Positions 3,342-44,622 of a stretch of DNA of 64,000 bases are shown in pieces (position 1 is the first letter of the stretch; each line of letters starts with the position of its first letter). Origin of the DNA: Candidatus Aenigmatarchaeota archaeon (lineage in GTDB: Archaea > Aenigmatarchaeota > Aenigmatarchaeia > Aenigmatarchaeales > JACQIB01); NCBI GenBank assembly GCA_016198755.1, contig JACQIB010000001.1, positions 96,001-160,000 of the forward strand, in the 5' to 3' direction. The translations under genes and the position numbers were made by a program. The notes beneath the pieces are model-generated. The model searched no databases, was not told the DNA's origin, and saw nothing but the letters and a program-made list of their open reading frames with translations.

Positions 3342-3559
3342 GGGGTCGTGGTCTAGCCTGGTATGACAGCAGTCTCCAAGTCAGAACCTTGACGGTTCCG
3401 ACACCTCCCCAAACTTGGAGAGTCGAGCAAAAGCGATGAGATAACTGCCTGCGGGTGTTCAAAGCGCAAGAAGGGGAGACCCCTTCTTACCGCCCTATTA
3501 ACCCCCTTGGTTAGCGGTAAGGGAAAGTTCTCCCCGTGAGAATCACCCCGACCCCACCA
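3342..3559 (+). tRNA. tRNA-Trp(CCA) with introns at 37/38 (3380-3442, 63 nt) and 59/60 (3464-3542, 79 nt)
   Basis: Removing both gives a normal cloverleaf with T-arm GGGTG-TTCAAAT-CACCC; BHB-like motifs at both junctions. Confidence 0.9.
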
Positions 3560-19538: not shown

Positions 19539-19576
19539 GAGTCCATTTAAATTCTCTTTTTCCCTATTCTAGCAAC

Positions 19577-19740
19577 GCGGGGGTGGCCCAGCTAGGTCAA
19601 AGGCGCTAGGTTGAGGGCCTAGTCGGTTAGTCCGTACGTGAGTTGCGCGCAGCGCACACGAATTCAAAGGAGGAGAAACTACGTATCTCCTTCCAACCTC
19701 TCCCTTTGAGAGTGGACTGAAAATCTCACCCCCCGCACCA
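19577..19740 (+). tRNA. tRNA-Leu(GAG) with introns at 53/54 (19643-19662) and 59/60 (19669-19723)
   Basis: Removing both gives GTGAG-TTCAAAT-CTCAC; long variable arm; BHB central helices CGTG/CACG and TTCA/TGAA. Confidence 0.92.
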
Positions 19741-19796
19741 TCTGCTGGCAAAACAAAAGTTGTGGCTTTAAAAGGTTTTGTTTTCAATGCAACACT

Positions 19797-40395: not shown

Positions 40396-40640
40396 TGGTG
40401 GGCCCGGAGGGAGTTTCGAACCTCAAGGGAGAGGTTGAAAGGAGATACGTAGTTTCTCCTTCTTCGAACCCTCGACTCTCGGGTCTGAAGAGTGCTGCTC
40501 TCGCAGTATTTCTTCCTGTCATCGCCTGAGCTATGAAGACCCAGGCTGCACATGCTTTTATCTGGTGCGGGCATATTCTGCAACACTTCTGCGTGCCGCA
40601 GATAAAAGCCCGATACTCTACCAGACTGAGTTACGGGCCC
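40396..40640 (-). tRNA. tRNA-Lys(TTT) with two tandem introns at 37/38 (40510-40602, 40485-40509) and one at 59/60 (40413-40462)
   Basis: Exons give GGGCCCG acceptor, TCGGG-CTTTTAA-CCCGA, GAGGG-TTCGAAT-CCCTC, ACCA; three BHB-like motifs. Confidence 0.88.
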
Positions 40641-44449: not shown

Positions 44450-44622
44450 TGGTCCCGCGGGGGAGATTTTCACCCACCCATAGGGAGAGGGTGGAGGGAG
44501 ATACGCAGTTTCTCCTCCTTTGAACTCCCAGCCTCTCGATTTCTTTTTGAACGCAGACTAATCTGCTGTTACTAATACGTAACCAGCTACAGTCGAGCGC
44601 TCCACCGTTGAGCTACCGCGGG
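44450..44622 (-). tRNA. tRNA-Tyr(GTA) with introns at 37/38 (44541-44586) and 59/60 (44467-44518)
   Basis: C1-G72 acceptor CCCGCGG/CCGCGGG; spliced T-arm GGGAG-TTCAAAT-CTCCC. Confidence 0.92.

Follow-up and report, generated by a model that had tools for sequence, protein, structure and literature searches.

Introns at T-loop position 59/60 in tRNAs of an aenigmatarchaeon are probably copied between genes, swapped with other introns and built around a dispersed hairpin module of ~40 nucleotides

Families of transposed introns in transfer RNA (tRNA) genes are known from the Thermoproteales (Fujishima et al. 2010, in the accounts of PMC4090602 and bioRxiv 10.64898/2026.10.13.758758). The account in PMC4090602 states that the mechanism by which archaeal tRNA introns transpose is unknown, and the one in bioRxiv 10.64898/2026.10.13.758758 names intron arrival as the central open problem, describing shared intron families as nearly absent from Asgard archaea and as found almost only in Thermoproteales. 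For the DPANN archaeon ARMAN-2, PMC3239211 describes an intron at position 59/60 with a relaxed splicing motif that is cut in vitro by the organism's own endonuclease, as well as a tRNA-Pro(GGG) with introns paired at 53/54 and 59/60. Population-level intron differences at one tRNA locus, together with orphan tRNA fragments by inserted DNA, are described in PMC3293823 for a 1.8-kb element that encodes a recombinase. Here we analysed a stretch of 64,000 nucleotides (nt), hereafter the window, from the genome of a Candidatus Aenigmatarchaeota archaeon (source genome G000: 0.89 Mb in 6 contigs, 40% G+C; the window is G000:C5:96001-160000). Three of its tRNA genes carry, in the T loop between positions 59 and 60, inserts with a common 37-nt core, which we call family A. 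We think it probable that these inserts are protein-spliced archaeal tRNA introns with a relaxed bulge-helix-bulge motif, removed between A59 and U60, and that they are copied from tRNA to tRNA, swap with other introns and are built on a selfish module.

The core, written in IUPAC code, matched the window at exactly three places, 19669-19705 (+), 40426-40462 (-) and 44482-44518 (-), and was not found in 100 dinucleotide shuffles of the window, even when up to 3 mismatches were allowed. Every match starts one base after TTCRAA (positions 54-59) in its gene. At 12-17 nt past the core there follows YGAA, then two bases, a T, the 5-nt complement of the T stem, the 7-nt acceptor strand, the discriminator and CCA. 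ARAGORN and the Rfam tRNA model, run on the uncut window, missed all three genes, which encode tRNA-Leu(GAG), tRNA-Lys(UUU) and tRNA-Tyr(GUA) (Table 1). An earlier note on this DNA had described the three inserts as one homologous family at T-loop 59/60, folding as two hairpins and differing between Leu and Lys by compensatory changes. This description held: the coordinates are correct, the tRNAs are called once the inserts are cut out, the core identities of 35/37 (Leu vs Lys) and 34/37 (Leu vs Tyr) were reproduced from the matched strings, the two hairpins are seen in the minimum-free-energy (MFE) folds, and the two positions at which Leu and Lys differ face each other in the outer stem of hairpin 1 (alignment columns 8:31), where a G-C pair is replaced by a compensatory A-U. 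The whole-genome search for the core that the note had proposed revealed a family larger than the window shows, with eight copies.

Table 1. Interrupted tRNA genes of the window, their parts, and further loci of the source genome. Positions are those of the window unless a contig (C) is given; R1 is a covariance model made from nine family-A copies.
Feature	Position	Strand	Evidence
tRNA-Leu(GAG), encoded CCA, T arm interrupted twice	19577-19741	+	reading; ARAGORN Leu(gag) over 1-89 once both inserts cut out
Second insert of tRNA-Leu(GAG), 20 nt, GC-rich, position 53/54	19643-19662	+	direct reading; unrelated to family A
Family-A intron, tRNA-Leu 59/60, 55 nt	19669-19723	+	R1 score 87.2 bits
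Hairpin 1 of the Leu intron: purine-rich 5' strand, CUACG-region loop, pyrimidine 3' strand	19670-19692	+	MFE fold, alifold pairs, pair counts on 20 copies
Hairpin 2 of the Leu intron: 5' strand and loop are the module's conserved pyrimidine tail	19693-19715	+	MFE folds
TGAA (partner of T54-A57, 19663-19666), then 3-nt bulge AAT	19718-19724	+	MFE fold
tRNA-Lys(UUU), 245 nt with CCA	40396-40640	-	scanner; ARAGORN Lys(ttt), i(39,118), once 59/60 insert cut out
Family-A intron, tRNA-Lys 59/60, 50 nt; central helix TTCG:CGAA, bulge ACT	40413-40462	-	MFE equals centroid, z = -2.8
tRNA-Tyr(GUA), additional 46-nt canonical intron	44450-44622	-	scanner; ARAGORN Tyr(gta), i(35,46), once 59/60 insert cut out
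Family-A intron, tRNA-Tyr 59/60, 52 nt	44467-44518	-	gene reading, MFE fold
tRNA gene, 218 nt: 79-nt family-D insert at 59/60 and 63-nt anticodon-loop insert	3342-3559 (C5:99342-99559)	+	ARAGORN Trp(cca) after cutting
Eighth family-A copy, core alone	C3:234069-234106	-	
Two adjacent EndA-family genes (tRNA_int_endo, PF01974)	C1:37787-38576		profile search
RtcB gene, one in the genome	C5:42797-45628	+	profile search

The copies have a common fold. Beyond the T stem the 3' strand bulges by 3 nt (AAU, or ACU in the Lys insert), after which come a helix of 4 base pairs (bp) and a three-way junction with two hairpins, the first of which begins at or beside the first intron base. The central helix joins exon and intron, with U54-U55-C56-R57 of the exon paired to YGAA at the 3' end of the intron. 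Folding of the T arm plus insert gave this structure as the MFE fold in eight of nine copies, and in 11 of the 17 copies of a later extraction, four of which were incomplete through the extraction. The fold z-scores against shuffles were modest (-1.6, -2.8 and -2.3 for the Leu, Lys and Tyr inserts). When 20 copies from several genomes were aligned to the covariance model, a procedure that favours the pairing of the model, 98.9% of the pair cells were standard. Exon base 57 covaries with its intron partner (column pair 4:58; AU in 14 copies, GC in 5, unpaired in 1), and two outer pairs of hairpin 1 change from G-C to A-U, in 5 and 3 copies of the 20. The covariation score was reached by none of 500 column shuffles, and slid partners paired in only 36-57%. 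The 3' strand of hairpin 2 varies among the copies, with complementarity retained.

This anatomy is consistent with protein splicing. The predicted 3' cut, which in the Leu intron lies between A19723 and T19724, falls in a proper 3-nt bulge; the inserts lack the strict hBHBh' form of the motif and show its relaxed form (HBh'/hBH). In all seven family-A tRNA genes of the genome, a cut at the predicted A59-T60 boundary restores a stem of 5 bp with a loop of 7 nt, TTCRAAT. We propose that the two adjacent EndA paralogs would cut both splice sites and that RtcB would join the exons and probably circularise the intron. The RtcB profile matches its gene as two pieces (positions 1-50 and 48-426) within one open frame of 1010 amino acids, which would imply an intein-sized insertion.

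In tRNA-Leu(GAG), the 5' strand of the T stem, GTGAG (19638-19642), is followed by the 53/54 insert and then by T54, with a boundary that is ambiguous by up to 2 nt. The two inserts split the T arm of this gene into three pieces. The T arm is uninterrupted in the orthologs of two related genomes, G001 and G003. The 118-nt insert in the anticodon loop of tRNA-Lys(UUU) may comprise more than one intron.

Across G000, a fuzzy search, a pattern search and R1 all gave eight copies of family A, with 0-4 substitutions over 38 nt. Seven of them occupy position 59/60 of tRNAs read as Val, Gly, Ser(CGA), Leu(GAG), Tyr, Lys(UUU) and Arg(CCU). ARAGORN confirmed the isotypes Leu, Tyr, Lys, Ser and Arg; Val and Gly are manual readings of two genes that retain other odd introns and for which ARAGORN gives other anticodons. 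The Val and Gly family-A introns are identical. Each of the eight copies is oriented in the sense direction of the gene that it occupies or follows. The eighth lies outside any tRNA, 1 nt past the stop codon of a gene for an RNA polymerase subunit of Rpb3/RpoD type (rpo3), where it precedes the promoter of a multi-intron tRNA-Leu (region G000:C3:233829-234106, -). The genomes G001 and G002 have the same gene order in the rpo3 region with no module copy, and one metagenome contig (L116) seems to have the module after the same gene end. The neighbouring tRNA-Leu carries a 12-nt mini-intron at 59/60 that ends like another intron family, D; a link between it and the copy after rpo3 was considered and rejected, as its ends resemble those of family D, not A.

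Position 59/60 is a hot spot for inserts in this genome. Our scanner, which relied on acceptor pairing, a T stem, TTCRA and an encoded CCA and whose gene count is thus a lower bound, found 37 tRNA genes, and Leu(GAG) brings the number to 38. A T-loop insert is present in 23 of these genes and absent from 15. Family A (starting GGAGGAGAAAC...) and family B (GCTCAGGGGGAAGTTTCCCCC...) occupy seven genes each, family C (GCAAATCCCTTTTCCGAAAAGG...) five, and family D or D-like inserts (GCGCAAGAAGGGGAG...) three, while the mini-intron accounts for one. Families A-D are unrelated in sequence and have the two-hairpin plan and the end ...YGAAAA/T in common. What the exon has to provide, any T stem and UUCRAA, is universal in tRNAs, and the intron would supply the rest, so that such an intron should be spliceable from any tRNA. 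The explanation that we favour for the 23 occupied genes is that the cassette is portable between tRNAs. Among the genes with a T-loop insert, ARAGORN found one of 23 uncut and 20 of 23 after the insert was cut out. The Rfam tRNA model found 16 tRNAs in the whole of G000 and ARAGORN two in the window, against the 38 counted genome-wide. Standard tRNA finders thus overlook most tRNA genes of this organism. The 218-nt gene of the window belongs to the family-D set, and its anticodon-loop insert has a motif, CAGAACCTTRACGGTTCCG...CCTCCCCAA, in common with that of at least one other tRNA gene (C3:21851-21980).

Comparison with relatives points to gain of family A by insertion. The relatives of the same GTDB family are distant, with Rpo3 47-59% identical in five full-length matches. 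None of four Tyr orthologs carries family A: G001 and G003 have an empty site, 59/60 is filled by an unrelated insert in G006, and the gene of G002 is interrupted at 53/54 instead. None of four Leu(GAG) orthologs carries it either, with the site empty in G001 and G003 and filled by unrelated inserts in G002 and G004. The native T stems are intact at the empty sites, and the insertions were therefore base-exact. Family A would have spread to seven tRNAs in this lineage by whole-intron copying. It would also swap at 59/60 with the three other families, and metagenome contigs that carry the core variant of G000 itself show recent swaps in tRNA genes nearly identical to those of G000. Two contigs (L106 and L107) have family A in genes that carry family B in G000, with matching exon sequence and downstream flank; by exon sequence, L127 has it in a family-D gene and L160 in a family-C gene. 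A partial gene on L109 corresponds to a family-D gene by its T stem and acceptor only. In the genome G017, family A occupies a tRNA read as Gly(GCC), whose counterpart in G000 carries family D. Core variants are genome-specific, all eight G000 copies having GTATCTCC and three G005 copies GTTTCTCC, and Lys(UUU) has family A in both of these genomes. Overall, the distribution is patchy: of the 42 genomes of the order, 10 contain family hits and 32 none.

The core is not confined to position 59/60. It belongs to a conserved DNA block of ~40 nt with sharp ends, AGA-GGAGAAAC-TAC-GTTTCTCC-CTCT-A-CCCTCTTCC-TTT; in RNA letters, the module consists of an extended hairpin, AGA-GGAGAAAC-UAC-GUUUCUCC-C-UCU, and a tail, A-CCCUCUUCC-UUU. 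In public genomes the module had 37 matches in 35 stretches, of which 11 are titled Aenigmatarchaeota, 13 'archaeon', 5 Methanocellales, 4 Thermococci, 1 Norongarragalinales and 1 Chloroflexota. The exact pattern matched in a further 60 metagenome stretches. The 19-nt hairpin occurs 1-15 times per genome in genomes of 0.8-1.4 Mb, and once in a metagenome-assembled genome (MAG) of 6.3 Mb. The Rpo3 proteins of MAGs titled Thermococci or Methanocellales are 37-39% identical to that of G000, a value that does not settle the phylum of these MAGs.

We sorted 87 distinct module contexts heuristically. Nine are tRNA 59/60 sites in sense orientation and 12 are other tRNA positions in sense; of these 12, seven follow the position-37 purine of Ala/Thr anticodon loops (37/38) and four follow the GG of D loops. 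The module lies antisense within tRNA genes in eight contexts, including complete genes, and abuts an antisense T-loop fragment in three. It is antisense just upstream of an open reading frame (ORF) in 14 contexts and sense upstream of an ORF in five, which leaves 36 unclassified. One Ser(CGA) gene contains a mirror-image intron, in which the module hairpin stands by the 3' side and the purine tail pairs with the first intron bases. In diverged variants found with R1, both partners of a pair have changed and the hairpin is preserved, as in AGAGAAAC...GTTTCTCT of G027. In the genomes G047 and G048, the antisense hairpin stands 4 nt before the ATG of three ORFs (L068 102-134 and 2773-2805; L056 2639-2671). 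These ORFs begin with MKG and a hydrophobic stretch, and one matches the N-terminus of archaeal type IV pilins (Pilin_N, E = 5e-6). A TATA-like box is seen ~50 nt upstream of the module in L068 and L056, so that the module would sit in the 5' untranslated region.

Some module copies accompany broken tRNA genes. At L001 1173-1560 (G039), and likewise in L002, L018 and L019, the orphan 3' piece of a tRNA, beginning with T54, directly adjoins an antisense module. Upstream of the orphan fragment of L001, at a distance of 290 nt, stands an intact tRNA-Gly(CCC) that shares its 3' end. The 24-nt tRNA 3' end forms direct repeats on both sides of a hydrophobic ORF of 58 codons, an arrangement resembling the scar of an integration or a tiny cassette. 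A split-tRNA reading of the orphan loci (G035, G039) is rejected for now: there is one module copy per genome and so no complementary partner. The minus strand of L121, a metagenome contig of 1346 nt, holds at ~190-330 two tandem units of a family-A intron plus a tRNA 3' exon (T60 to CCA). No 5' exon stands in front of these units, the first of which follows an ORF stop codon; they may have been left by rearrangements or be the 3' parts of tRNAs that are split at 59/60. At ~950-1012 of L022 (G036), a tRNA-Gly locus keeps the acceptor strands and the 3' part of the T loop, and a diverged hairpin copy stands in place of its D and anticodon arms, so that a tRNA-like remnant is left.

The occurrence of the module in both orientations and outside tRNAs, together with its patchiness, suggests that it is copied at the level of DNA. 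We therefore read it as a selfish building block rather than as an RNA that has its own function. A more specific proposal, which we put forward tentatively and regard as possible rather than likely, is that the module is a mobile DNA cassette through which archaeal tRNA introns are gained. It would bring one complete hairpin and one strand of a second and, in either orientation, make an insertion spliceable as a three-way-junction intron where a few bases of the exon are able to pair with the end of the intron, 59/60 being the easiest site; copies next to start and stop codons would then be insertions of this element at the only other places that a 0.9-Mb genome tolerates.

Several observations weigh against the interpretation as copied, protein-spliced introns on a selfish module. 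The predicted 5' cut (A59/G) lies in the loop of the three-way junction, where a continuous helix closing a 3-nt bulge is lacking, and cleavage there therefore depends on an EndA assumed to have broad specificity. With both T-arm inserts of tRNA-Leu present, the MFE fold lacks the central helix. One and the same 19-nt hairpin is shared by genomes with an Rpo3 that matches that of G000 at only 35-59% (35-45% in a subset of them), and this sharing fits horizontal spread but could equally reflect a sequence-specific host factor, that is, a function. No reverse transcriptase (PF00078) was found in G000, and no Y1 transposase (PF01797) in G000, G005 or G048, though each of these genomes has 3-8 copies; for G000, negatives on mobilising enzymes rest on a genome that is 89% complete. 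No consistent terminal inverted repeats or target duplications were seen by eye in the module contexts. The module searches used an exact pattern of hairpin plus tail, and the conservation figures are thus biased upward; the sorting of contexts is heuristic, with 36 of the 87 unclassified; and the MAG titles Thermococci, Methanocellales and Chloroflexota may be wrong or reflect mis-binning. Y1 transposases are present in G042 and G047, though not beside the module, the smallest distance to a copy being ~1.8 kb (G042 C75). A search of G000 for a TnpB-type domain (PF07282) found none. The AAA/TTCGAA repeats at the intron ends were considered as a target-site duplication, a candidate that was rejected: they are explained by the central helix, TTCGAA being a palindrome.

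Of the other explanations, the one that survives best, though we judge it unlikely, is that the module acts as a portable signal for RNA processing: the hairpin, fixed in sequence, would mark its base for cutting by EndA or another ribonuclease, and cells would use it to define intron ends as well as to trim mRNA ends. The 5' splice site does fall at the base of the extended hairpin at three tRNA positions (...TTCRAA/, ...GCA/AGA, ...GTA/AGA, ...GGTA/AGA), and in several antisense copies the exon resumes 3-4 nt past the hairpin (TTA/GCAGG, TTA/TTCGAAT). The hairpins 4 nt before the ATG of the three G047/G048 genes, one with Pilin_N, and the G000 copy 1 nt past the rpo3 stop codon would suit such a signal as well, and recognition by a protein would account for a fixed sequence across very divergent hosts. 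However, the family is patchy (10 of 42 genomes), and splicing at 59/60 does not require it, as unrelated families replace family A at that site. The antisense hairpin of L061 and L046, moreover, lies at least 8 nt from the splice site, and the mRNA copies showed no further helix with which a bulge-helix motif would be complete.

Still less probable, in our estimate, is that the excised and probably circular intron is a functional small RNA that either pairs, through a C/U-rich loop, with purine-rich ribosome-binding sites or serves as a protein sponge, with the tRNA genes only an expression platform. Circular tRNA introns are known in archaea. Hairpin 2 presents a conserved pyrimidine loop, UCUCCCUU, the core is conserved between divergent genomes, and seven expressed copies would mean a high dose. 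Yet a complementarity search of G000 found no stretch of at least 12 nt that stands out (there was a single 12-mer), and the 10- to 11-mers were near chance. Close relatives have the family in different tRNAs, other families substitute for it, 32 of 42 genomes of the order have no hit at all, and antisense module copies inside introns would yield a different RNA. In the whole window, the Rfam covariance models gave no family-A match at gathering score, and 19560-19760 gave a match only at chance level (E = 2.8). Box C/D guide RNAs have a C box, RUGAUGA, and a D box, CUGA, that frame the guide, as in the Haloferax tRNA-Trp intron; this candidate was rejected, as CTGA occurs near the 3' end in five of seven copies and TGATGA in none.

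The earlier note had offered a choice between such a functional excised RNA and a mobile element that targets the universal TTCRAA^T site. The first option is left without support, given a complementarity search in which no target stands out and a family both patchy and interchangeable; the proposed comparison with Rfam matched no family. Its argument from a conserved structure beyond what splicing needs is weak as well, for the hairpins and the 4-bp helix form a junction that replaces the inner helix of the bulge-helix-bulge motif, and three unrelated families have the same plan. From the second option, the copied or mobile character is borne out by relatives without the family and by the swaps, whereas specificity for the site is contradicted by copies at 37/38, in D loops, in antisense and beside protein genes. 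The suggested search of viruses, made with two patterns on the viral contigs of IMG/VR, gave no module match.

Least probable of all is that there was no transposition and that an ancient 59/60 intron of many tRNAs has been homogenised within each genome by gene conversion (concerted evolution), which would explain the genome-specific variants (GTATCTCC in G000, GTTTCTCC in G005) and the family-A intron in Lys(UUU) of both genomes, but which sits badly with the empty Tyr and Leu(GAG) sites and intact native T stems of G001 and G003, with flanking homology (TTCRAA on one side, 1-3 nt on the other) too short for ordinary conversion, with four unrelated families at the same site and with one copy outside any tRNA.

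We return to copied, protein-spliced introns on a selfish module as the preferred interpretation and compare it with described systems. Miniature inverted-repeat transposable elements (MITEs), repetitive extragenic palindromes (REPs) moved by RAYT proteins, and palindrome-associated elements of the IS200/IS605 type are non-autonomous hairpin repeats. Like MITEs and REPs, the module is short, non-coding, hairpin-forming and multi-copy, occurs in both orientations and patchily in tolerated places of a dense genome, and has dispersed copies with sharp common ends. Unlike them, it has no definable terminal inverted repeats or target duplication, and a search of G000, G005 and G048 found no Y1 transposase. 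The features described for the 1.8-kb recombinase-encoding element in PMC3293823 are also seen at the loci L001, L002 and L121, but the repeated unit here is ~40 nt long and non-coding.

With ARMAN-2, as PMC3239211 describes it, the present tRNAs have in common the intron position, the relaxed motif and, in Leu(GAG), the pairing of 53/54 with 59/60. The ARMAN-2 EndA is described as a three-unit enzyme of epsilon2 type, unlike the two adjacent EndA genes here; its intron is short, and that account reports no intron families shared between tRNAs. The closest likeness is to the Thermoproteales, in whose review and preprint accounts we likewise meet near-identical introns across isotypes, lineage-specific gain, dependence on the bulge-helix-bulge motif and an unknown mechanism of movement. 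The host here is instead a DPANN lineage, Aenigmatarchaeota; the four families all sit at one site, 59/60; and family A is built on a ~40-nt module that also occurs antisense and outside tRNAs, points on which the comparison extends as far as those accounts do. The lineage thus offers a second, very active system for studying how tRNA introns arrive. Empty, filled and swapped alleles together with a defined 40-nt sequence make the mechanism testable, and a core that can be traced outside introns gives a handle on how such inserts spread. Copied tRNA introns were already known from Thermoproteales and 59/60 introns from ARMAN-2; what is new here is that the 37-nt core of one intron family is a hairpin module of ~40 nt that recurs in 87 contexts elsewhere.

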